A stretch of DNA of 64,000 nucleotides, from sequence record OR836606.1; one strand, written 5' to 3'. The DNA is from Staphylococcus phage LY01. The notes beneath the pieces were generated by a model. It did no database searches. It was not told the origin of the DNA and worked only from the letters and a program-made list of their open reading frames with translations. The position numbers were made by a program, and so were the translations under genes. Below are positions 2,179 through 46,645 of this stretch, piece after piece (the stretch's first letter is position 1; every line of letters starts with the position of its first letter).

Positions 2179-2454
2179 TTATTTAAGATTATCTCTGATA
2201 AAATTCTTTAAATACTTTTTAGTTACTTCAGAATGTGAATTTAATTCGTTAGAAAGACGAACTAATTCTAGTTTCACTTCATTCAATTTCTTTTCATTAG
2301 TTTGATTAGAACTTTCTATTCTATTAATTAATGTACATATGATATCATTTAAATAATGATAATTATCTTTCATAGTATTTAATTTAATTTCATTCATTCT
2401 AGTACGTTCTTCTAATTCGTCCATACGCTTAATTAAACTTTTTTCATTATTCAA
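2179..2454 (-). CDS. small coiled-coil protein (91 aa), paralog family
   Basis: Ends ...NFIRDNLK, similar to the C-terminal IVKENLK motif of ORFs 2475-2723 and 3191-3379. Confidence 0.4.
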   Translation of the reverse strand: MNNEKSLIKRMDELEERTRMNEIKLNTMKDNYHYLNDIICTLINRIESSNQTNEKKLNEVKLELVRLSNELNSHSEVTKKYLKNFIRDNLK

Positions 2455-2474
2455 AATAAAATCACATCTCTTTA

Positions 2475-2723
2475 TTATTTAAAGTTTTCTTTAACAATTT
2501 CGTTAGACAATTTATTTATATAATCATTCTTAAATTCTGTATGCTTAGAAATTGACACTATTGCTTCTTTAAGAAGTTTATTTTCTTTTTTAAGATTTTC
2601 ATTATATGCATAAAGATTATTTACAGCTTTATTTAATTTTTCAATTTCAAAATTAAGACGATCTAAATTAGCTATGCTCCTAAATTCAATAGTTTTCAAT
2701 TTTTCTTTAATTTCTTTATCCAT
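2475..2723 (-). CDS. small coiled-coil protein (82 aa), paralog family
   Basis: Ends ...NEIVKENFK, shared with 3191-3379 (NEIVKENLK). Confidence 0.4.
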   Translation of the reverse strand: MDKEIKEKLKTIEFRSIANLDRLNFEIEKLNKAVNNLYAYNENLKKENKLLKEAIVSISKHTEFKNDYINKLSNEIVKENFK

Positions 2724-2735
2724 TTTTAATCACCC

Positions 2736-3191
2736 TTATTTAATTAATTTAAATAAATTACGTCCAAATTCCTTATACTTTTTATTTTCTAATATACTGA
2801 AATCAACTAAGCTGCTATCAACTCTAAGTAAATATATTGAATCATCTTTTTTATTTTTATTATTTAATATAAAACTTCCAAAATAGATATTACCTTCATT
2901 AGGTTTTTCTTTTTTAACGTTTACTGCATTTTCATTAAATTCAAATTTATAAATGAAACCTAGTAATTGTATTGGACCGTTTTTAAATATATGATAATCG
3001 AAATTATTTTCAAATTTATGGTCTTCATTATTAATTTTCTCAATTAATTCATCTTTAATAACTTCATTATAAAAAGATTCATCCACTTGACTTAATGGCC
3101 TTAAATATGATTCTTCATCTACCTTTGGTTCTAACATTTTAATTTTTTGATCTAAAGTTAATTCTTTGGCAATAACTTTTTCATTTGACAT
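2736..3191 (-). CDS. hypothetical protein (151 aa)
   Basis: ORF in the same operon-like block on the minus strand. Confidence 0.45.
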   Translation of the reverse strand: MSNEKVIAKELTLDQKIKMLEPKVDEESYLRPLSQVDESFYNEVIKDELIEKINNEDHKFENNFDYHIFKNGPIQLLGFIYKFEFNENAVNVKKEKPNEGNIYFGSFILNNKNKKDDSIYLLRVDSSLVDFSILENKKYKEFGRNLFKLIK

Positions 3192-3379
3192 TATTTTAAA
3201 TTCTCCTTAACAATTTCATTTACTATTTTATTTAATTCCTTTTCATCATAACCACTATTCTTTTTAATATTAATTATAAATTTTTTTAATTCTTTATTTT
3301 CTTCTTTTATCTTATTTGTATAGAAATTATCTATGCTCATGGAAATACCTTTTGAATTTACGTTTATAATTGAAGACAT
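3191..3379 (-). CDS. small coiled-coil protein (62 aa), paralog family
   Basis: C-terminal NEIVKENLK motif shared with 2475-2723. Confidence 0.4.
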   Translation of the reverse strand: MSSIINVNSKGISMSIDNFYTNKIKEENKELKKFIINIKKNSGYDEKELNKIVNEIVKENLK

Positions 3380-3391
3380 CTTAAATTCCCC

Positions 3392-3655
3392 TTACATGAA
3401 TTTTTTATTTAAATCTTTATAAATTAATTTTTTTAATTCTTTTCTATCATATTTATTTTCTTGATATAGTTTAAAAAGGAAACGATTGAGTTCCCTATTC
3501 TCTTCTTTAAGTTTATTAATCTCATCAATTTTATCTCGCCCTGATAAATTTCTACCTATACTATTTATATTTTTAGAAATATTATTCATTGCTGCTTGTA
3601 AATGATTTTTATTAATTTTACTACTCGCATTATTATTATTATTATTATTATCCAC
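3392..3655 (-). CDS. small N-rich/coiled-coil protein (87 aa)
   Basis: ORF with poly-N tract. Similar E/K-rich architecture. Confidence 0.35.
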   Translation of the reverse strand: MDNNNNNNNASSKINKNHLQAAMNNISKNINSIGRNLSGRDKIDEINKLKEENRELNRFLFKLYQENKYDRKELKKLIYKDLNKKFM

Positions 3656-3675
3656 TTATATCATCCTTATACATA

Positions 3676-4902
3676 TTATTGAACTACAATCAAATTCTTT
3701 TTAGCACGAGTGATAGCTGTGTATAATGACTTAAATCTATCTTTACTCATATTTTCACTAAATACTATTACATTATCAAATTCAGAACCTTGAGATTTAT
3801 GAATAGTGATTCCGTATGCAAAATTAAATGGATTTACTTTCATACCAAAATCAGACATCTCAGTTACATATCGTTTCTTAAATATTTTATTAATTTCATT
3901 ATCTCTGTGTCTTAGATCAAATAATTCTTGTTGATCTCCAATAGTGCCTTCAAAAATTAAATCATCATAATATATTCTACTAAATCTTTCCTTTTCAAAA
4001 CCTTTAGGTTTAAAATCCATTTGAGTTGATTTAGTCATAGGTTTTTTCTTACCAGATCTAGTTATATTTCCAATTAGACCGTTAGTTAAATATTGAGTTA
4101 TATCACCTTCATTAACTACTTTAGACCAATTATTTTTTAAACACATAATTTTTTCATCCTCTTTAGGGAATGGATTATTTTCAACATCGATATTTAATAT
4201 TTGACTTCTATAGAATCTATTAAATTGATCTACCGTTCTATTATAGCTCATTAAAACTTGATCTGCATTCTTATACATGTCTAAAGTTAATTCATCTGAA
4301 GTAATTACATGTACATTATCTCCATAAGAACCGTATTCTAAATCTTTACCATTACGAACTAAATTAGCTGCAACAAGTATAGGATTATCTAATGACTGTC
4401 TTACTGGTTCATCTAAGAATATGTCAGGTTTATCTAATAATTCATTTCTTCCTGATAAGCTTTTAAGCTGTGCGGGGTCTCCTAAACAAAGTATAGGTAT
4501 ACCAAAACTTTGAATTTCTTCTATCATCTTCATAGGAACCATTGAAACTTCGTCTATGATTATTAACTTAATATCACTTGGTAACTCATCTTTTAATGTA
4601 AAATTTACTTTACCAGTTTTCTCATCCATAAAATGATTATAAATAGTTCTATGGATTGTAGTTGCATTTAATCCTCTTTTGACTAACACACCTGCAGCCA
4701 TTCCTGTATATGCTATAAAAGAAACATTAGCTTCATGTAAACCTAAAGAATCGATTATTTTAGTCATTGTATAGGACTTCCCACTTCCAGCGATGCCTGA
4801 TAATACAAAAGGTCTATGACTATCATTATTATACCATTCTTTAGCTAATCTTAACCCTTCTTCTTGTTTTTTATTTAACCCCATTATCTTAATACACCTC
4901 AA
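3676..4902 (-). CDS. SF1 DNA helicase, Dda/RecD-like (408 aa)
   Basis: Walker A GIAGSGKSYT and Walker B IIDEVSM. C-terminal GITIHKSQGSEFDNVIVF motif typical of the RecD/Dda/Pif1 family. Confidence 0.75.
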   Translation of the reverse strand: MRCIKIMGLNKKQEEGLRLAKEWYNNDSHRPFVLSGIAGSGKSYTMTKIIDSLGLHEANVSFIAYTGMAAGVLVKRGLNATTIHRTIYNHFMDEKTGKVNFTLKDELPSDIKLIIIDEVSMVPMKMIEEIQSFGIPILCLGDPAQLKSLSGRNELLDKPDIFLDEPVRQSLDNPILVAANLVRNGKDLEYGSYGDNVHVITSDELTLDMYKNADQVLMSYNRTVDQFNRFYRSQILNIDVENNPFPKEDEKIMCLKNNWSKVVNEGDITQYLTNGLIGNITRSGKKKPMTKSTQMDFKPKGFEKERFSRIYYDDLIFEGTIGDQQELFDLRHRDNEINKIFKKRYVTEMSDFGMKVNPFNFAYGITIHKSQGSEFDNVIVFSENMSKDRFKSLYTAITRAKKNLIVVQ

Positions 4903-30430: not shown

Positions 30431-30592
30431 CATTTATATTAACTATATGAATTTCATATAGATTAGACTATATCTTATACTTCTAATAAGTATTATTATA
30501 TTTAATCGTTGGACAATCATAAAGATTGATGCTGATTAAGTTTATAAACTTTTCCAGCAATTAATAATATTTATACTGAGCCATTAAAATTA
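30431..30592 (-). ncRNA. miniature group I self-splicing intron (162 nt) in nrdE
   Basis: On the minus strand, in order: IGS GGCUCAG pairing with exon end CUGGGU (terminal U.G), P AAUUGCUGG, Q AUCAGCAUC, R GUCCAACGAUUAAAUA, S GAUAUAGUCU, P9 hairpin CUAUAUG/CAUAUAG, 3' tail ending ...AUAAAUG. Splicing yields ...SYVNQLG|QRNGAGALYL, a canonical NrdE junction. Confidence 0.75.
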
Positions 30593-33872: not shown

Positions 33873-34682
33873 TTATTTATACTTATTTATAAAATAATAT
33901 TGAACTTCTCGATGTAATACATTATTTTCTATAAAAGAATCTTTAAATACATTAATTAAATGGTTTTCAAATCTAACATCTGTTACAGACTGTTCTACTA
34001 ACATTCTATCAATTTGATAGTTGTTTAATTCAGATTCTTCATCATAGATAATGGTCTCTATTACATCTTCATTATCAGGAATATGAATACTGTCAATAAT
34101 CTCAGGAATGGAATATACTAAAGGAGTATAATCGTTATCAATAACTTTCTTTAAGTTATTATATGAAAGAGAATTAATGACATCATCGTCCATACTGTCT
34201 TTATAAGTTTTAGCTAATTGCATTATATTCTTTTCAATATAGTTAATAAATAAATTATTTAAAGTTTCTTTTTTATTTAATACAAAGAAATTATACAATG
34301 ATTTAATGTATTGAGCTTTATCTTCAATTAAAATATCTTCTGGAAATTCTAAAGAAAACTGGTAAGTAGTTTCAATAGATTCTTGAATTTCATTAAGAAT
34401 ATCATGATAAACTTGTTTAGTTTTAATTAAAATATCATTATCTTCTTTATATCTTTCTAAAATAAATTTAAATCTAATTTCAAAGTATTCAAAAAAATCT
34501 TTATGGTATTGATTAATATAAAATTGTCTTGTATTTGAATTTTCAATTTGTTCCTTAATATTATCAATCATAATATCTTCAGATATATTCATAATGACTT
34601 CATCATATTCTTCTTTTACCATTTCTAAATCATCTTTATCGTCAATTAAATATGTTTTTGTCAATTTATTTTCACCATCCAT
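33873..34682 (-). CDS. hypothetical acidic protein (269 aa)
   Basis: ORF downstream of the last terminase exon. Confidence 0.45.
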   Translation of the reverse strand: MDGENKLTKTYLIDDKDDLEMVKEEYDEVIMNISEDIMIDNIKEQIENSNTRQFYINQYHKDFFEYFEIRFKFILERYKEDNDILIKTKQVYHDILNEIQESIETTYQFSLEFPEDILIEDKAQYIKSLYNFFVLNKKETLNNLFINYIEKNIMQLAKTYKDSMDDDVINSLSYNNLKKVIDNDYTPLVYSIPEIIDSIHIPDNEDVIETIIYDEESELNNYQIDRMLVEQSVTDVRFENHLINVFKDSFIENNVLHREVQYYFINKYK

Positions 34683-34758
34683 TTTTTATATACTATTTTA
34701 CTAAAATATCTAATACAATCTAGTTAGATTTGTTTTATAAAAATTTGCGATAATAAAT

Positions 34759-34787
34759 AGGTAATGACAAATAATATGTCATTACCT
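34759..34787 (-). terminator. rho-independent terminator (minus strand) after terminase exon 6
   Basis: AGGTAATGACA ... TGTCATTACCT stem, the same family as the 1610-1650 hairpin. U-rich tract on the minus strand. Confidence 0.5.
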
Positions 34788-34796
34788 ATAATATAT

Positions 34797-35201
34797 TTAA
34801 TCTAATAGATTCATTATTCTTTTTGATTTCTGATCTGGAGAAGAATTGTTATTCTGTAATAAAGGATTACTAGGGAGATTACCATCAATAATTCCACTAA
34901 TACGTTTCATGGATGCAATATCTTTTCTTCTAGCTTGTCTTTCTTTTTCAATTTCTTCTGCATTATCTCCATCTGCAGATACCATTGAACCGTATTTAAC
35001 TTTAACAAATTTCTTAATGTCTTTCTCATAGTAATAAGCATATAAACAAAATAGATAACTCATAAGTAAATCGTCATGTCCGCCATCAGGGTGATCAATT
35101 CTACCTTTTTTCATTTGAAGGGATTTTATTTGTTGGAATAATGGTTTATTATTAACTAAATAAGGTTTTTCTTCAACAATCATTGATAAAATTTCATTGA
35201 G
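34797..35201 (-). CDS. terL: terminase large subunit, exon 6 of 6 (LNEILSMIVEEKPY...HPDGGHDDLLMSYLFCLYA...)
   Basis: Contains the terminal catalytic HDD motif followed by a hydrophobic helix, typical of the C-terminal end of the terminase nuclease domain. Reading frame is open upstream of the annotated ATG. The ATG at 35204-35202 is predicted to be the intron's last 3 nt. Confidence 0.7.
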   Translation of the reverse strand, partial: LNEILSMIVEEKPYLVNNKPLFQQIKSLQMKKGRIDHPDGGHDDLLMSYLFCLYAYYYEKDIKKFVKVKYGSMVSADGDNAEEIEKERQARRKDIASMKRISGIIDGNLPSNPLLQNNNSSPDQKSKRIMNLLD

Positions 35202-35389
35202 CATTAGATCTGCTATATAAATTCATGAGTTTAATTTAATTAAAATGAATTTATTCGACTTCGTCATCACTCTGACTTACTTTGCACTTTAAGTTTTTTC
35301 GTTATAAACTACTTCAACAGAAAGCTTTAATCAAAGCAGAGGTTAAAGCTCTTAAGTCATCGCATTTGGACATTTAGAGGAATAAGACC
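35202..35389 (-). ncRNA. predicted TnpB right-end / omega-RNA scaffold region (3' end of IStron)
   Basis: Non-coding, locally GC-richer, stem-rich segment immediately 3' of tnpB, as expected for the IS605-family RE and omega RNA. The guide would correspond to the first ~16-20 nt of terminase exon 6. Confidence 0.4.
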
Positions 35390-36559
35390 TCATTTAGCCT
35401 GCCCAACAAAACGCTTACCATACAGTTTTAAATTGACAGCAGCGTTATAATCTCTATCCATTTTATGTCCACAATCACAGGAATACCATCTATCTGATAG
35501 TTTCAACTTATCTTCTTTAGTTAGAATTTGGCCACAATTAGAACATAATTGAGTTGATGGAAACCATCTGTCAGCTACAATAATAGTATTACCATTGCTT
35601 TCAGCTTTTTGTTCAAGTAAAGTCCTAAACTGTCTCCAATTGGACTGTGCGATTGATTTGGATAGTTTTCTATTTTTAATCATATTTGAAACCTGTAAAT
35701 CTTCAATAGTTATATATTGATAATTGTTAATCAAGTTAGTAGTAATCTTATGAAGATAATCTTTTTTAATATTATTAATTCTATACCATACTTTTTGTAT
35801 TTTGGTTTTCAATACATTGTATTTATTAGAACCATAAACTTTTTTAGATAATCTTTTTTGGTAGTATTTGATTTTATTATAGAGTGAGATTAGTTTATTA
35901 TTTAATGAATGGTATTTTTTAAATTTACCGAAATCATCATTAATAATAGCTAAATCTTTTACACCTAAATCAATACCTACATGACTATTGTTATGAATTA
36001 ATTTTTTACTGTTATCAACTTTCATTACTATCGAAGCGAAATACCTACCAGCATATTTGGATATAGTTACTTCTTGTATAGAATTATAATCTTTGTTTAA
36101 AGGTTCTTTCATTTTAATTAATGAATTTACACCACGCAATTTAAGTTTATTATTTTTCTCACCTTTAATTTGAATAGCGTAAGGATCTTTCCTATAGAAC
36201 CTTGCTCTTAATTTAGATTTCTTTTTAGATTTAAATTTAGGATATTTACCATATCCTTTCCACATCATATTAAATGCTTTACCTAGATCTTCTGTAGAAG
36301 TTTCAATTATCATGATAATTTGATCTTTCTCCCAATCTTCTTTACATTTTTTAAGTTCATCACGAACTCTACGATGAGTTGGTTTTGGTAAAGATTTATC
36401 AATTTGATAATTATTCCACATATATTTCCATTTATTAAGTGCCTTGTTATAAATATAACGACTATATCCAAAAGCTTGATTAAATATCTCTCGTTGTTCT
36501 TTATTAGGTTTCAATTCGATTTTTATAGATTTGTACATGTGATTTTCACCTCGATTCAT
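35390..36559 (-). CDS. tnpB: TnpB (IS605/IS1341-family OrfB RNA-guided nuclease, 389 aa)
   Basis: N-terminal YKSIKIELKPNKEQ...FNQAFGYSRYIYN HTH-like start. RuvC-I GIDLGVKDLA, RuvC-II ITIEDL, zinc ribbon CSNCG...CDCGH, RuvC-III DRDYNAAVNL. Intact frame. Confidence 0.85.
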   Translation of the reverse strand: MNRGENHMYKSIKIELKPNKEQREIFNQAFGYSRYIYNKALNKWKYMWNNYQIDKSLPKPTHRRVRDELKKCKEDWEKDQIIMIIETSTEDLGKAFNMMWKGYGKYPKFKSKKKSKLRARFYRKDPYAIQIKGEKNNKLKLRGVNSLIKMKEPLNKDYNSIQEVTISKYAGRYFASIVMKVDNSKKLIHNNSHVGIDLGVKDLAIINDDFGKFKKYHSLNNKLISLYNKIKYYQKRLSKKVYGSNKYNVLKTKIQKVWYRINNIKKDYLHKITTNLINNYQYITIEDLQVSNMIKNRKLSKSIAQSNWRQFRTLLEQKAESNGNTIIVADRWFPSTQLCSNCGQILTKEDKLKLSDRWYSCDCGHKMDRDYNAAVNLKLYGKRFVGQAK

Positions 36560-36599
36560 ATTTCTAAATGATTTAGAATTTATAATTCATTGTTTAATA

Positions 36600-37140
36600 T
36601 ATCGAGGTAAAAATTATTTTAATTAAATTAAACTCACGAATTCCAGAAATCCCTTTCAGGTTCTGTTAAATAGCAAGACTATATCATGATCCATTAAATC
36701 AATGGACCCCTCGCACTTCGAAAAACTTCTGATGAAGTTAATCTACTCTACTCACTTCACATAGTATTTCAACTATGCTTATTCAGGTTAATCAAACCTG
36801 TGCTTTCGATAGTCGTTGAACGTTTATCCATCATGTGGACACTTCGCTGCTAGACTTCCCATTGTTTACAAACTTTAGCGATCTAGGGTTTTCACCTAGA
36901 CTTGTTTTCAGCATAGTTCATCTTAGAGATTTTTTCTGTCTTTCGACTGCATGTCACGCTATCCATTACTGGCATACGTTGTAGCTCTCTAAGCTTTAGG
37001 GTTTTACAAGCAATTCACGAGGTATTTTTACCACTAATTTCATGAATTAAAATTAGTTTAATTTACTTATATAGTAGCAGAGCGTGAAACATGAATTAAT
37101 AAGAATTTAAGTCTTAATTCACTTAAAATATCTTAAATTA
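36600..37140 (-). ncRNA. full-size group I ribozyme core of the IStron (5' part)
   Basis: P/Q/R/S elements in canonical order on the minus strand. Long peripheral insertions. P9-like hairpin CAGAA.../...UUCUG before the tnpB start. Begins immediately after the terminase exon 5 sense codon, so the in-frame UAA is the first 3 intron nt. Confidence 0.65.
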
Positions 37141-37977
37141 AAACTGTTTCGTTACTCTAGATTTTTTAGTTGTATCAATACCATATCTTCTTACTTGTTT
37201 GGTAACTTTATTAGTGCTATTTCTAGGAATTTCATTAAATACTTGCTTATTAACTTCAACTTGTTTTTCTGCTACTCTATTCTTTAATGAGTAGAAAATA
37301 TTGTCTCCAATACCATCAGTTTGAATCATATCTTCTATCATTACAGTACCTGCATAGTTACGTTCAGGTATTAATACTGCATTAGGTATATAAAGCGTAA
37401 TAAGTTCTTTAATTAATTTTCTAAAAGTAGGTCCATTAATTACATTATTTTGGAAAATCATTACAGGCTCTAATGTACCTGGATCAACTACAGTAAATGC
37501 AGTATTATCTCGACCAAGACCACCAGATATATCAATACCAACAAGCCAGTTCTTTTCATGCATATTATCCATCTTTTTAACCATATAAACATAATAAGTT
37601 TTACCATTTATTTTAAAATCAATAGTATTATATATCTCTTTATTTGCATATAATGATAATTCTGACATTTGTTGTTCATCAAATAAAGAATCATCGTTAC
37701 TAAACGCCCATTCAAGAAGTATCTCACGTTTAACTGCTTCTAAAGAACCAATTTGACGTTTTTGCTTTTCTAACCAAGCATCATCTTTACCTAATTCTTT
37801 ATATGAATATTCTATATAGATGAATGAATTGCCTGAATTACTTTCCATATACTCTTCTAATTTTTCATTACCCTCTTCTTCAGAATTAATGTAATAATCA
37901 TATATTTTTTCTGTCCATTGTGCTGCATCATTCATTTGCTCAAAGAAGAACTGTCCTTGAGGTACATCCAAAGTACT
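37141..37977 (-). CDS. terL: terminase large subunit, exon 5 of 6 (nuclease domain: STLDVPQGQ...WLVGIDISGGLGRDNTAF...)
   Basis: RNase H-like terminase nuclease motifs (first catalytic Asp in GIDISGG). The annotated ATG at 37980-37978 is predicted to be the intron 4 3' end. The stop at 37138-37140 is the IStron's first 3 nt. Confidence 0.75.
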
Positions 37978-38138
37978 CATATTTTTTATCCTATATTAAT
38001 TTAATATAGATAAGACTATATCTTAGTATATTATAATACCATTTATTATTTAGTCGTTAAACAAGTATTATCAACTTGATGCTGATTGTCTTAATAAAGA
38101 TTTTCCAGCAATTAAATAAATAAGCCCAGTTTAATTTT
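37978..38138 (-). ncRNA. miniature group I intron, terminase intron 4 (161 nt)
   Basis: IGS GGGCUU pairs with exon end GCCU (terminal U.G). P AAUUGCUGGAAAAUC, Q AAUCAGCAUC, R GUUUAACGACUAAAUA, S GAUAUAGUCU, P9 CUAUAUUAAAUUAAUAUAG, ends ...AUAUG. Confidence 0.7.
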
Positions 38139-38210
38139 AGGCGTTGTTGTAATTAGAAGACCATAAGGTGTGCCATTTTTCTTAGCTATTGCAGATGCTG
38201 TAGAAACTGC
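38139..38210 (-). CDS. terL: terminase large subunit, exon 4 of 6 (72 nt: AVSTASAIAKKNGTPYGLLITTTP)
   Basis: Encodes the ATPase coupling motif III (ITTT), as in T4 gp17. Exactly 24 codons between two predicted introns. Confidence 0.65.
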
Positions 38211-38370
38211 CTTTTAATATTAATCTACATGGATTCCATATAGAATAGACTATATCTTAGTATTATATTAATACTATTTATTATTTAGTCGTTGAACACT
38301 ATAAATAGCGATGCTGATCGTCTTAATAAAGATTTTCCAGCAATTAAATAAATAAGCCCGCATTAATTTC
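38211..38370 (-). ncRNA. miniature group I intron, terminase intron 3 (160 nt)
   Basis: IGS GCGGGCUU pairs with exon end GAGGCCU (terminal U.G). P/Q/R/S elements. P9 CUAUAUGG/CCAUGUAG. Tail UUAAUAUUAAAAG. Confidence 0.7.
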
Positions 38371-38440
38371 AGGCCTCATTGCTTCAAACATTGTTTGGTT
38401 GTGTGGAATGAATGCCCACTCATCCAACCAGACCATAGGT
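38371..38440 (-). CDS. terL: terminase large subunit, exon 3 of 6 (70 nt: ..PMVWLDEWAFIPHNQTMFEAMRP)
   Basis: Encodes the Walker B/catalytic carboxylate region (VWLDEWAFIP, compare T4 gp17 IYIDECAFIP). Frame is phase 1 and is completed by the 14-nt micro-exon. Confidence 0.65.
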
Positions 38441-38596
38441 CATTATGTTAACTATATTTAAAAAATATAGATCAGACTATATCATACTCATATAAATAAG
38501 TGAATATATTTAGTCGTTGAACACTATAATTAGTGATGCTGATTAAGATAATAATCTATTCCAGCAATTAATATTCTTTTACTACTGCAACTATCT
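38441..38596 (-). ncRNA. miniature group I intron, terminase intron 2 (156 nt)
   Basis: P1: micro-exon end CUACUGU pairs with IGS GCAGUAG (7 bp, terminal U.G). P AAUUGCUGGAAUAG, Q AAUCAGCAUC, R GUUCAACGACUAAAUA, S GAUAUAGUCU, P9 CUAUAUUUUUUAAAUAUAG, tail UUAACAUAAUG. Confidence 0.6.
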
Positions 38597-38610
38597 ACAG
38601 TAGAACCACG
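38597..38610 (-). CDS. terL: terminase large subunit, micro-exon 2 of 6 (14 nt: CGUGGUUCUACUGU)
   Basis: The only segment length that restores frame between exon 1 (ends with the complete codon GGU) and exon 3 (phase 1). Bounded by omega-G of intron 1 (AAAAUAG|) and the U.G pair of the intron 2 P1. Confidence 0.5.
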
Positions 38611-38737
38611 CTATTTTAGACTATATCTTCAATTTTATAATTGTCTTTTATTTAGTCGTTGAACACATATGTGATGCTGATCAAATTAAATAATTTGTCC
38701 CAGCAATTAAAAAGATTTATAGCAAGCCATGATATTA
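38611..38737 (-). ncRNA. miniature group I intron, terminase intron 1 (127 nt, no P9 hairpin)
   Basis: IGS AUGGCUUGCU pairs with exon end AGCAGGU (7 bp, terminal U.G). P AAUUGCUGGG, P5 CAAAUU/AAUUUG, Q AUCAGCAUC, P6 ACAU/AUGU, R GUUCAACGACUAAAUA, P8 CAAUU/AAUUG, S GAUAUAGUCU, then AAAAUAG|. Confidence 0.6.
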
Positions 38738-39379
38738 ACCTGCTTTATTTGCACTCTCACTGTTAGTCGGAGGTGAAACTGTTTTAATAGTATTGTTATT
38801 ACTAGCTAATTGAAATTCGTTGATCTTATCTCTATCATTTTTATCTCCAAAATTAGCTAATACATATTCAGGTAAACATTTCTCTTTAAATAAGTTTTTA
38901 AGACGTTTTAAGTTCTCAGTTGTATCTGAATAAGATTTGTGTGTAAATAACATTGTATAGTTACTACCTACTAATAACATTATCCATGAATAATAACATA
39001 CTGCTGAATATGTTTTATAGTGCTGACGTGGAAGCATTATAGCTGTATCTAAATTGTGTAACATACAAAATGTCATCGCCATATTACCTCTATGAAGTTC
39101 ATACATAACCTTACCGCCAGGAACAGGAACTCTTATAACTTCCCTTAAATAAAACCATATATTAATTTTAGCTTCCCTTAATACACGGGTTTTCATTTCA
39201 TCAGAAAGTTCAGGATCCCAAGGATCTACTCCTACAAGATTTTTATCATATAGAGTTAATGGAATCCCATAATTTCTGACGTTGTTCTTCTTAAGATCCC
39301 TAGCCACTCTTAAAAAACTAACATTATTAGTTTTATAATCGTAATAAACTTTTTTCTTTAATTTTGGTTTAATTGTCAT
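38738..39379 (-). CDS. terL: terminase large subunit, exon 1 of 6 (214 aa; ATPase N-terminal part with deviant Walker A LPRQHYKTYS)
   Basis: T4 gp17-like deviant Walker A (SRQLGKT-type). The stop TAA at 38735-38737 is the first 3 nt of intron 1. Confidence 0.75.
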
Positions 39380-39398
39380 ATTTATTTCAACTCACTTT

Positions 39399-40562
39399 CT
39401 ATACATTTAATCTATCTGATTTTTTAATTAATGTTTGAATATCAGAAAGTTGTTGTTTTAATTCATTTTTAACTTCTTTATCATTATTAGGGTTACTTAT
39501 TTCAAATTTTAATGTTTTAATAATAGCTTCAATTGAATCCGTTGGATAGTCTCTATAGTCTCTAATAAACAATCTACTTGGATATAATAATTTCCTAACA
39601 ATTTTACCTAATAAAGTTTTACCTTTTTTATTTTCAGATTTAGTTCTAAATGATTTGTATATGATATCATAAAAATTTATAATTTCAGTAGAATAACCGT
39701 ATAACGTAGGTAACTGATTAGCCGATCTTTCTGAAAGGTTGTAGTTCATTTTACCCACTCTTTCATTATCTAAAAGATTTAAAGTTACATTAGCTATAAA
39801 AGAACTGCCTAACACCAGTGGTAATACTCCTGTCAATGAAGTTAATCCAGCAACTAAAACTGTCATAGCTATAATCATAGGACCTGCGAATTTTAAATTT
39901 CTAGTTGTATCAGATTCAATGTCCTTAGTATACTGAAATTGAACTGGCTTGTTATCTTTATATTTTAATTCAAAAGCGGGTTCTTTTCCTTGGCTTAATA
40001 CTTTAATTTCGATAGGTAAAAATAGATTATGTCCCATTTCATGCAATAATAATGCAGTACACATTCTTTCATTAAAATTACTAAAAGTCACTTCTTTAGA
40101 AGATTTTTTCTTTTCTAAAAAGTATCTTATTGAAGATAACTCAATAAATACCTCAATTTCCCTAGGTTTAGCGTAATGTATACCATTTTTCTCTTCCATA
40201 ACTATTTTTGTTATGCCATCAATAGTATCTCTTATTTGTTCTGGCTTAATTAAAGTATAAGCCACTGATCTTACTCTAAATTTATCTTTACCTTTAGGAT
40301 CAGCTTCAACAAATTTTAATTGCATATTAGCATTAAATAATTTTTTAGTAATTTTAGAAATATTATTAGCTATTTTATTTATTTCATGTTTATCAATTAA
40401 ATCAAATTCAGATTTATCGAAATTATAGCTATCTAATAAAGTTTTAAATTCTTCATCTATTTCTCTAAGTAATGAAGTATTTTTACTGAAATTAAAAGCA
40501 TCTTCATTAATATTCATTATTTTATTAATTTTATTCAATTGGCATTCTTTTCGTAAATCCAT
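39399..40562 (-). CDS. putative membrane-associated Zn metallopeptidase (HExxH; 387 aa), paralog A
   Basis: LLHEMGHNLFLP motif. Predicted TM segment (FAGPMIIAMTVLVAGLTSLTGVLPLVLG). Strong similarity to the adjacent ORF. Confidence 0.5.
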   Translation of the reverse strand: MDLRKECQLNKINKIMNINEDAFNFSKNTSLLREIDEEFKTLLDSYNFDKSEFDLIDKHEINKIANNISKITKKLFNANMQLKFVEADPKGKDKFRVRSVAYTLIKPEQIRDTIDGITKIVMEEKNGIHYAKPREIEVFIELSSIRYFLEKKKSSKEVTFSNFNERMCTALLLHEMGHNLFLPIEIKVLSQGKEPAFELKYKDNKPVQFQYTKDIESDTTRNLKFAGPMIIAMTVLVAGLTSLTGVLPLVLGSSFIANVTLNLLDNERVGKMNYNLSERSANQLPTLYGYSTEIINFYDIIYKSFRTKSENKKGKTLLGKIVRKLLYPSRLFIRDYRDYPTDSIEAIIKTLKFEISNPNNDKEVKNELKQQLSDIQTLIKKSDRLNV

Positions 40563-45283: not shown

Positions 45284-45506
45284 ATGTCTAAAGATATAAA
45301 AGCTTATCTTATTAATGAATCTAACACAACTTCTCAACCAGAAGTAGTTCAAGATAATAATAAATCGGTTAGATTCATTGCTGAGTTACAAGAAGCTGAT
45401 AGACAAAACCGTAATGGTCGTGTTTATCGTAAAGATGTTATTCAAAGTGGTTTAGATAGTCCAGTAATACAAGAAAAATTAGCAAGAAAAACTTTTTATG
45501 GTGAGT
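45284..45506 (+). CDS. head-region hypothetical protein, exon 1 of 4
   Basis: Ends ...KTFYGE. Exon end GUGAGU(U) pairs with intron IGS GGCUCAC (terminal U.G). Confidence 0.6.
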
Positions 45507-45660
45507 TTTAGGTTAAATGGCTCACATTAAATTATATTAATTGCTGGAAAAGATTATTATCTTAATCAGCATCAACTTAATACAAGTTGTTCAACGACTA
45601 AATATATAGCCTAGATGATATAGTCTAACCTTTATTAAAATGATAAAGAATAATAATTTG
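45507..45660 (+). ncRNA. miniature group I intron 1 (~154 nt, boundaries +/-3 nt)
   Basis: IGS GGCUCAC, P AAUUGCUGGAAAAG, P5 GAUUA/UAAUC, Q AAUCAGCAUC, P6 AACUU/AAGUU, R GUUCAACGACUAAAUA, S GAUAUAGUCU, P9 CUUUAU/AUAAAG, tail AAUAAUAAUUUG. Confidence 0.7.
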
Positions 45661-45920
45661 CAGGACATCCTTTAAGTGATGAACCTAAACGACAAATGTA
45701 TATTGATCAACGTAATATTTCTCATATCGTTACTAGAACATGGTGGAATGGTAATAAATTAATGGCAGAAGTAGAAACGGCACAAACAGCAGCTGGTAAA
45801 GATATGAAAGGTTTAATCGGACAAAAGTCTGACGTATCTTTCTCAATGCGTGGTTTCAGTAAAATTAATAGAACACCTTCTGGCGAAGTTGAAGTTACTA
45901 AACCTTTAAGATTAATCTGT
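45661..45920 (+). CDS. head-region hypothetical protein, exon 2 of 4 (..SGHPLSDEPKRQMYIDQ...PLRLIC)
   Basis: Frame open from 45657 upstream of the annotated ATG. Ends at the complete codon TGT. P1 of the next intron is CUGUU/AGCAG. Confidence 0.6.
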
Positions 45921-46101
45921 TAAATTGTAGCAGCTTTATATAGAAATATATATTGAAAAAGAATATTAATTGCTAAGAAGTTTAATTAAGCCAATTAGCA
46001 TCAACTTAATACAAGTTGTTCAACGACTAAATATATTTACTCTTAATAAGAGTATGATATAGTCTAATCTTAATAGTAAGATCTATTAAGTTAATATAAT
46101 G
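45921..46101 (+). ncRNA. miniature group I intron 2 (~181 nt)
   Basis: P AAUUGCUAAGAAG with compensatory Q AAUUAGCAUC (P4 covariation relative to the other copies). R GUUCAACGACUAAAUA, S GAUAUAGUCU, P9 CUUAAUAG/CUAUUAAG, tail UUAAUAUAAUG. Confidence 0.65.
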
Positions 46102-46121
46102 TACGATAAAATAAACCTTGT
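46102..46121 (+). CDS. head-region hypothetical protein, micro-exon 3 of 4 (~20 nt; only frame YDKINLV is open)
   Basis: Segment between omega-G of intron 2 (46101) and the predicted 5' splice site of intron 3 (UUGU|, IGS GCAA 10 nt downstream). Alternative lengths of 18 or 24 nt are possible. Confidence 0.4.
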
Positions 46122-46293
46122 CGCTTCTTAAAGCAATTTAAGAATGATAAAACTATTAATTGCTAAAATCTTTTATTAAAGTAATTAGCATCAACTTAAT
46201 AAAAGTTGTTCAAAGACTAAATATAGTTTATCCTTTTATAGGATAATGATATAGTCTGATCTATATTATACTAATATAGATAACATAAATGTG
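46122..46293 (+). ncRNA. miniature group I intron 3 (~172 nt, boundaries uncertain by a few nt)
   Basis: P AAUUGCUAAAAUC, Q AAUUAGCAUC, R GUUCAAAGACUAAAUA, S GAUAUAGUCU, P9 CUAUAUUA/UAAUAUAG, tail AUAACAUAAAUG(UG). Confidence 0.6.
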
Positions 46294-46645
46294 GGTAGTA
46301 ATTCCATCTCATCAAGATTCTTACATTCAAAATATTATTTCAGAAGGACACAATAATTATAATCCTAATGATTTACAAATGGTAAATGAATCAATTGATA
46401 TGTTCACTAATGGTAAAATTACTGAATTTTCTCCTAGAGAAGTTTTAACTTATATTAAAGAAAATTCAGATAATGTAAAATACATTGCTGAAGATATGGG
46501 GTTTGCTGGAGTTGATGAATCTAATATCAGTTATGATAAAGGATCTCAATTAGCTTCAATTAGAGAAAGTAATAAAACTATTAAAGTTTTCTTAGAAGAA
46601 TCTGTTCTTAATGGACTTGATGATTTCTATAGAAACTTTAAATAA
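46294..46645 (+). CDS. head-region hypothetical protein, exon 4 of 4
   Basis: Frame of annotated ORF 46289-46645. The annotated ATG at 46289 is predicted to lie within the intron 3' tail. Confidence 0.55.

Follow-up and report, generated by a model that had tools for sequence, protein, structure and literature searches.

Five probable group I-type introns, four of them miniature and one a tnpB-carrying IStron, in the terminase gene of Staphylococcus phage LY01

The 64-kb stretch analysed here (the window) is part of the 258,897-bp genome of Staphylococcus phage LY01 (sequence record OR836606.1). On its minus strand it carries the gene for the terminase large subunit (gene terL, protein TerL), with the ATG at 39379, the stop codon at 34797-34799 and five insertions in between. 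Plain calls of open reading frames (ORFs) across 34797-39379 (-) returned fragments of 214, 30, 280 and 135 aa together with a 389-aa ORF in which OrfB_IS605, Cas12f1-like TNB and HTH domains are recognised, and in the LY01 record the three large terL pieces (WRM43563, WRM43562 and WRM43560) are labelled "hypothetical protein". We consider it highly probable that the terL pre-mRNA contains five group I-type introns and that removal of all five yields a 2034-nt ORF for a T4 gp17-like terminase. The locus is of a known kind, a phage gene with group I introns and an IStron, in an unusual form that combines five introns, micro-exons and amplified tiny ribozymes.

The junctions of terL were established by aligning the uninterrupted terL coding sequence (CDS) of phage S6 to the window, not by splicing rules. 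The six joined exons amount to 2034 nt (677 codons plus stop) and match the S6 CDS with 0 gaps and 91.9% nucleotide identity. Exon 1 (39379-38738, minus strand like all terL features below) comprises 642 nt corresponding to nt 1-642 of the S6 CDS and ends with ...SANKAG and U as the last base; it is followed by intron 1 (38737-38611, 127 nt, last base G) and the 14-nt exon 2 (38610-38597; CGTGGTTCTACTGT / CGUGGUUCUACUGU), which encodes RGST and two bases of a Val codon. Intron 2 (38596-38441, 156 nt) separates exon 2 from the 70-nt exon 3 (38440-38371; PMVWLDEWAFIPHNQTMFEAMRP) with the Walker B motif, intron 3 (38370-38211, 160 nt) lies between exon 3 and the 72-nt exon 4 (38210-38139; AVSTASAIAKKNGTPYGLLITTTP) with the TTT coupling motif, and intron 4 (38138-37978, 161 nt) precedes exon 5 (37977-37155, 823 nt), which reads STLD...TTKKSR plus the first Asp base and has G as its last base. 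Introns 1-4 are mini group I introns. Intron 5 (37154-35210, 1945 nt), starting with UAACG and ending with AUAGCAG, is an IStron, and exon 6 (35209-34797, 413 nt including the stop) continues with (D)LMLNEIL...GGHDDL.... The last base is G in all five introns at the homology-defined 3' junctions. A first-pass annotation of this DNA, made from the letters alone, had proposed six exons and five introns of group I type. The gap-free S6 alignment bears out this architecture; the proposed exons 1-4 (642, 14, 70 and 72 nt) were exact, and the 14-, 70- and 72-nt exons align without gaps, coding for RGSTV, Walker B and the TTT motif, respectively. The 14-nt exon 2 is required for the gap-free match.

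The spliced product matched TerL families of the PHROG database at E = 3.6e-54 (phrog_32359) and 4.9e-42, and it matches 326 phage records, mostly uninterrupted TerL genes of jumbo phages. In a Pfam search the unspliced ORF fragments gave no terminase match; TerL can be recognised only once the exons are joined. The alignment to T4 gp17 runs straight through the micro-exon region (RG, then Walker B, then ITTTP) and confirmed that the micro-exons encode these ATPase motifs, as the first-pass annotation had supposed: exon 3 contributes MVWLDEWAFIP (MIYIDECAFIP in T4 gp17) and exon 4 GLLITTTP (IIITTTP), and the nuclease motif GGHDDLLMS (GYHDDLVMS) is supplied by exon 6. Walker B with the catalytic Glu, the TTT coupling motif and the RNase H-like nuclease Asp are found together in one spliced polypeptide, which characterizes it as a T4 gp17-like TerL. 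When the terL region was compared with phage genomes by BLAST, matches were confined to the S6/MarsHill group of Staphylococcus jumbo phages.

Within this group the terL intron sites are variably occupied. Uninterrupted terL CDSs of 2034 nt are present in S6, UFV_DC4 and SA1. Site A, after G214, is occupied in the window, MarsHill, Madawaska (there with a homing-endonuclease ORF) and AH12, and site A', 15 nt upstream of A, in PB50 and Machias, where it leaves a 29-nt micro-exon. Site B, which interrupts the Val219 codon 14 nt downstream of A, is occupied in the window, MarsHill, Madawaska, PB50 and Machias. Introns after P242 (site C) occur in the window and MarsHill, and introns 4 nt upstream (site C') in PB50 and Machias; site D, after P266, is occupied in the window, AH12, PALS_2 and Machias, and site E, which follows R540 and the first base of the Asp541 codon, in the window only. 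MarsHill has the same introns 1-3 at the same sites, introns 1 and 2 being identical, and the same 14-nt exon, and Madawaska has a synonymous 14-nt exon. In AH12 the codons of the 14-nt exon are contiguous with exon 3, which is direct evidence that these 14 nt are coding. Likewise, TTTP and STLD, the residues on either side of site D, are contiguous in S6, Madawaska and MarsHill and are restored over the site-D introns of AH12, PALS_2 and Machias. TerL must be made in spite of the insertions, because LY01 and MarsHill are isolated, viable phages. TerL of MarsHill, Madawaska and Machias was previously described as intron-disrupted and was the sole such gene for which the authors could not confidently reconstruct the mature protein (Korn et al., bioRxiv 10.1101/2020.12.14.422802). 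The LY01 gene is the same gene in the same phage clade and shares sites A-D with these phages, but here it was resolved through intact alleles, and compared with that study LY01 has an additional fourth mini-intron and the IStron.

Introns 1-4 (127, 156, 160 and 161 nt) contain no ORF, have a GC content of 20-28% and share P/Q/R/S-like motifs (UUAAUUGCUGG, AUCAGCAUC, GUUCAACGACUAAAU and GAUAUAGUCU) far above the level of shuffled sequence. At the homology-defined junctions, P1 of introns 1-4 comprises 7, 7, 6 and 4 bp, respectively, and ends in U.G. The pairings (exon/guide) are AGCAGGU/GCUUGCU for P1 and CGUGGU/AUCAUG for P10 of intron 1, CUACUGU/GCAGUAG for P1 of intron 2, AGGCCU/GGGCUU and GCA/UGC for P1 and P10 of intron 3, and GCCU/GGGC and AGU/ACU for those of intron 4. 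CUACUGU/GCAGUAG, which the first-pass annotation had pointed out, is a real 7-bp pairing (-9.2 kcal/mol, z = -3.8), is best taken as P1 of intron 2 and covaries in PB50 and Machias (GCACCGU/GCAGUGC). Introns 3 and 4 are near-identical paralogues that differ at exactly the P10 triplet, and because this triplet differs between the sisters (GCA/UGC vs AGU/ACU) the 3' splice site of intron 4 can be placed at 37978. Bases 1-6 of the 14-nt exon 2 belong to P10 of intron 1, bases 8-14 to P1 of intron 2.

The core helices were studied in a larger set of copies. P3, spanning about 65 nt, is formed in 13/13 mini-intron copies by at least 8 different sequence pairs, and a per-segment analysis revealed P5, P6, P8 and P9 hairpins in most of the 13 copies, again with differing sequences. 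Unconstrained folds recover P1, P4-P5, P7 and P8. From the 13 copies a covariance model (R1) was built, and 24 copies from the window and its relatives were aligned. In this alignment, which was fitted to R1 and carries a bias favouring structure, 96.2% of the cells including the P3/P7 pseudoknot were paired (24-45% in slid controls), 18 of 37 pairs showed compensatory changes on both sides, and the covariation score reached 0.422, compared with ≤0.07 in controls and with 0/500 shuffles attaining the same value. The covariation signal is regarded as real because the slid controls and the independent per-segment folds support it. R1 scored introns 1-4 at 94.8, 140.1, 122.6 and 114.6 bits, respectively; with default filters intron 1 was missed, and it was recovered only with the filters off. 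The ribozyme architecture and its covariation are established by these data, and the covarying core helices, the P1 and P10 pairings and the terminal G support the assignment of the introns to group I.

The family is not restricted to terL. Of the eight mini-intron copies in the window, terL accounts for four, the prohead protease gene for three and nrdE for one. With intron 2 as query, BLAST found the family in Madawaska, MarsHill, AH12, Machias and PB50 only, at 8-29 places in each genome. The prohead protease/scaffold gene (45284-46645, plus strand) contains mini-introns at 45507-45660, 45921-46101 and 46108-46291, and the last two leave between them a 6-nt micro-exon, TACGAT (46102-46107, Tyr-Asp). 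Its four exons add up to 843 nt and are together as long as the intron-less PALS_2 gene; BLAST aligns the three larger exons to that gene. The TACGAT exon takes part with all of its six bases in P10 of the upstream intron (UACGAU/AUUGUA) and with four of them in P1 of the downstream intron (CGAU/GUCG), so that the two pairings are mutually exclusive. In Machias this protease gene is annotated as three pieces only. The nrdE copy (30431-30590, minus strand; 121.8 bits) lies within the ribonucleotide reductase alpha gene, between ...SYVNQLG and QRNGAGALYLN, and has a G.U change in P7 (CGAUUA).

Several features weigh against a reading of these elements as self-sufficient group I introns. P2 is absent from all mini-intron copies, and in intron 1 the 20 P9 positions of R1 are replaced by 1 nt, leaving it without P9. 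P1 of intron 4 has only 4 bp, and P10 of intron 2 was found by eye with 5/6 pairs and one mismatch. In the protease-gene copy at 45507-45660 (+) P8 is nearly gone, with 7 nt between P3' and J8/7. The Rfam model Intron_gpI gave no match in the window at the gathering score and none in 34500-39700 at E ≤ 10; UFV_DC4, whose terL is uninterrupted, had no Rfam group I match either. Furthermore, all four terL mini-introns are below the size range of 333 bacterial tRNA group I introns, 184-894 bp (PMC13011429). Autonomous catalysis is uncertain because of the small size, the lack of P9 or P8 in some copies and the lack of P2 in all. As a separate observation, the Madawaska and Machias copies (L010:529-679 and L011:529-678) share the P8 deletion, and this core helix therefore appears to be dispensable or replaced.

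Accordingly, there is a substantial chance, although we do not favour it, that the exons are right but that the mini-introns, or at least those lacking P9 or P8, fold and splice only with the help of a protein from phage or host, or of a neighbouring intron. The 127-161 nt size with P2 missing throughout, P9 missing from intron 1 and P8 from the first protease-gene intron would fit such a dependence, as would the 20-28% GC content and the failure of the Rfam model to recognise the introns, and protein cofactors are needed by many natural group I introns (PMC2813881). On the other hand, the catalytic core, comprising P3-P8, the joining regions and a bulged, guanosine-binding P7, shows conservation and covariation, and the mini-introns contain no candidate maturase gene. 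Self-splicing of introns 1-4 is our inference. All four carry P1 and P3-P8, and P9 is present in all except intron 1. P1, with U.G at the cleavage site, would form between a guide near the 5' end and the final 4-7 bases of the preceding exon, and P10, in introns 1, 3 and 4, between the same guide region and the initial 3-6 bases of the exon that follows. Splicing would then proceed in two transesterification steps, started by free guanosine.

A more far-reaching proposal is offered tentatively and is on balance unlikely to hold in full: no natural group I ribozyme would be smaller than the mini-introns (as short as 127 nt, lacking P2 and P9), and these would form a family resembling miniature inverted-repeat transposable elements and amplified within one phage clade. 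Tandem copies would depend on each other, intron 1 would use the P1 hairpin of intron 2 as its P9, splicing would be ordered or cooperative, and TnpB bound to the IStron would throttle the terminase. A role of CUACUGU...GCAGUAG as P9 of intron 1, an alternative raised in the first-pass annotation, was unsupported when considered by itself, since the hairpin lies beyond the 3' splice site and the covariance model deletes P9 without recruiting it. No relevant paper came up in literature searches on phage micro-exons and on the minimum size of group I introns.

Intron 5 is a group B (IS607-type) IStron with tnpB only. It is flanked by ...UCUAGAG before UAACG at the 5' junction and by AUCU after AUAGCAG at the 3' junction (3' flank AUCUAAUG), and its P1 is UAGAG-U/GCUCUG, where the wobble pair comes from the intron's own first U. 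The group I ribozyme part occupies 36645-37154 (-), with the R motif GUUCAACGACUA, the S motif GAUAUAGUCU and P3 formed by CCUCGUG/UGCGAGG, and has extra hairpins between P7 and P3' that make it subgroup IA-like. The ribozyme region is conserved upstream of tnpB in the metagenomic contigs L012, L015 and L013, and in L013 P3 covaries (CCUUGUG/UGCAAGG). The mini-intron model R1 scored the IStron ribozyme at 12.8 bits, which is no match, and intron 5 therefore belongs to a group I lineage separate from that of introns 1-4. An AU-rich inverted repeat of 33 nt, 91% complementary between its 5' arm (36610-36642, -) and its 3' arm (35220-35252, -), brackets tnpB. The tnpB gene (35390-36538, -; WRM43561.1) encodes 382 aa plus stop and is 100% identical to the "mobile element protein" of LY01. 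The protein contains the Pfam domains OrfB_IS605, Cas12f1-like_TNB and HTH, aligns over its full length to solved structures (PDB 8iaz, E = 1.7e-49; ISDra2 TnpB 8h1j, E = 5.7e-41) and retains Asp, Glu and Asp of the RuvC domain (GIDLG, IEDL, DRDYNAA) as well as the zinc-finger cysteines, so it reads as a homologue of RNA-guided nucleases that is apparently intact. The 3' non-coding part (35210-35389, -) ends at the 3' splice site and, by analogy with known elements, presumably serves as omega RNA scaffold; up to the junction, four elements have blocks such as UGACGAAGUCGA and AUAGCAG in common. The end identities of the element are established: the right end ...AUAGCAG is common to four independent elements, and sequences diverge right after it. 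TnpB activity and mobility of the element are inferred.

These properties place intron 5 beside the group B IStrons BcISt1 (Bacillus cereus), CsISt1 (Clostridium sporogenes) and CboIStron (C. botulinum and phages), in which a 5' group I ribozyme is likewise followed by tnpB (ORF B) downstream. The group B signature consists of a 5' exon G at a GG/AG site, the first intron U in the wobble pair and a CGG/CAG 3' end; splicing after G was shown experimentally for BcISt1, and CsISt1 has an AG site, a CAG end and ORF B only (PMC4227781). In the same way, intron 5 follows an exon-final G with the wobble U as first intron base, has a long AU-rich stem that brackets the insertion sequence part, and resembles CsISt1 in its AG site, CAG end and sole ORF B. 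The C. botulinum IStron has a guide RNA whose end coincides with the 3' splice site and whose guide comes from the 3' exon, and its splicing is repressed when TnpB binds (10.1101/2023.11.20.567912); the conserved 3' region of intron 5 adjoins the 3' splice site, where the CboIStron guide RNA lies. Intron 5 differs from these IStrons in its host gene, which is essential and late, belongs to a virulent Staphylococcus jumbo phage and also houses four unrelated mini-introns, and in its TnpB, to which the closest one in the phage collection is only 41% identical. According to the proposed mechanism, the larger subgroup IA-like ribozyme at the 5' end would cleave after G, one base upstream of the wobble-pair U, and the 33-nt AU-rich stem would loop out tnpB and return the 3' splice site to the ribozyme core. 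Judging from the characterized IStrons, TnpB with a guide RNA ending in exon 6 would cut intron-less terL alleles, and TnpB binding to the IStron would compete with splicing.

Three points fit this picture less well. Intron 5 lacks tnpA (the serine recombinase for autonomous transposition), as 35210-37154 holds no second ORF. Its flank is AGAG, not TGGG, and the intron-less alleles read CGTG there in 8/8; since the presumed target-adjacent motif (AGAG) is missing from 8/8 intron-less alleles, the predicted homing target is unseen in known relatives. Finally, the exon 5/6 boundary is ambiguous by one base, as lengths of 822 and 414 nt fit the S6 alignment equally.

Further observations concern the IStron and its relatives. 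The ORF-less mini-intron at site C' (L005:5573-5743 in PB50, L006:2749-2902 in Machias) is apparently spliced after G, at AAUGAG followed by UAAAAAGG, and, as in group B IStrons, its own first U enters the wobble pair (GAGU/GCUC), so a shifted 5' splice site is not confined to IStrons. In intron 5, a 14-nt hairpin with 93% complementarity (36542-36555/36601-36614, -) buries the ribosome-binding site of tnpB, AUCGAGGUGAAAAU, and its counterparts in L012 and L015 consist of a different yet complementary pair (UUACCUCC/GGAGGUAA), which suggests translational control of TnpB. A second LY01 TnpB (P0002), encoded outside the window, is 81% identical to the TnpB in terL, and the LY01 genome thus probably contains a second IStron copy. 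No contig carrying an identical TnpB is on record beyond LY01. More than 100 TnpB proteins (P0008-P0120) are about 60% identical and mostly encoded on contigs of about 240 kb, and in the one examined, on L013 (ENA contig, 239 kb; 2250-4209), the group I ribozyme adjoins tnpB upstream as in the LY01 IStron. The lineage of the LY01 IStron seems to be common in uncultured genomes of apparently jumbo-phage size. The JGI contig L016 contains a 76%-identical IStron (1158-1400) with the same AUAGCAG end, followed by ATCTAA, the first six bases of exon 6, although the downstream protein looks unrelated. The occurrence of ATCTAA after both IStrons may reflect a target preference.

The first-pass annotation had derived all junctions from the rule that the upstream exon ends in a U.G pair and the intron in G, and had not recognised intron 5 as a tnpB-carrying IStron. 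The rule alone does not give every junction: the 5' junction of intron 5 follows G, not U, and both ends of this intron were misplaced as a result. Exons 5 and 6 had been given as 837 and 405 nt, where homology gives 823 and 413 nt, and the stated total of 2037 nt matches neither the sum of the six proposed lengths, which is 2040 nt, nor the homology-based coding length of 2034 nt. We regard it as very improbable that the true mRNA follows the earlier set of 642 + 14 + 70 + 72 + 837 + 405 nt, with intron 4 ending at 37990 and intron 5 at 37152-35202. This set is in frame and free of stop codons, and the G at 37990 is also a possible terminal G, but the sole in-frame placement of the 837- and 405-nt exons (37989-37153 plus 35201-34797) adds IKNM after TTTP and changes DLM to V, and both alterations are found in 0/8 relatives. 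Moreover, homology places the 3' splice site of intron 4 at 37978, and its P10 (AGU/ACU) agrees with 37978 and not with 37990, exon 5 would end in A, against the rule used to define it, and conservation of the IStron right end AUAGCAG extends to 35210, which lies 9 nt upstream of the alternative site.

Exon sequences within 12 nt of the five terL junctions were 20.9% diverged from S6, compared with 7.3% elsewhere (p = 1e-5), and all changes in these regions are synonymous. The 14-nt exon differs from S6 at 6/14 bases, the last exon base is U in LY01 and A or G in S6 at three sites, and the Arg540 codon is AGA in LY01 and CGT in 8/8 intron-less alleles. The pattern is compatible with co-conversion during homing or, alternatively, with selection that favours guide pairing and acts against cutting by the nuclease. 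That terL is a decaying pseudogene, with packaging performed by another terminase, is hardly credible: the LY01 record calls the terL pieces hypothetical proteins only and the view is limited to 64 kb of the 259-kb genome, but six of six exons are intact, the 21 amino acid differences from S6 spare the motif segments of ATPase and nuclease aligned to gp17, the changes close to the junctions are synonymous, introns 1-3 are also present in MarsHill, a propagated phage, BLAST of the window terL region matches each related genome at the terL locus only, and the spliced protein matches one place in 7/9 relatives, with a second place in PB50 and Machias.

The interrupted but functional terL favoured here can be compared with the classical phage group I introns of T4 (td, nrdB, sunY), Twort (orf142, nrdE) and SPO1 (DNA polymerase). 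Like these, the LY01 introns lie at catalytic motifs of conserved genes, have P1/P10 guide pairing, U.G wobble, terminal G and R and S motifs, and are variably present among close relatives; the nrdE copy in the window is located in the same type of gene as known phage introns. Unlike the classical introns, the mini-introns measure 127-184 nt, lack an ORF, P2, peripheral elements and an Rfam match, and are amplified, with tandem copies 14 or 6 nt apart. To our knowledge, the smallest well-studied self-splicing group I intron, that of Azoarcus, has about 205 nt.

Altogether, the analysis resolves terL, which was left unreconstructed in the published comparative study and is annotated as three hypothetical proteins in LY01, and it demonstrates that annotation based on ORFs and Rfam misses both the introns and the micro-exons. 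If the elements of 127-161 nt indeed self-splice, they would push the known size limit of natural group I ribozymes downward and provide a compact model of the catalytic core. With exons of 14 and 6 nt between two ribozymes, splice-site choice and the order of splicing become directly testable. The TnpB-IStron in an essential late gene of a virulent phage offers a natural test case of whether RNA-guided nucleases serve co-infecting phages in intron homing or as weapons of competition, and likewise of the effect that antagonism between TnpB and splicing would have on virion production.

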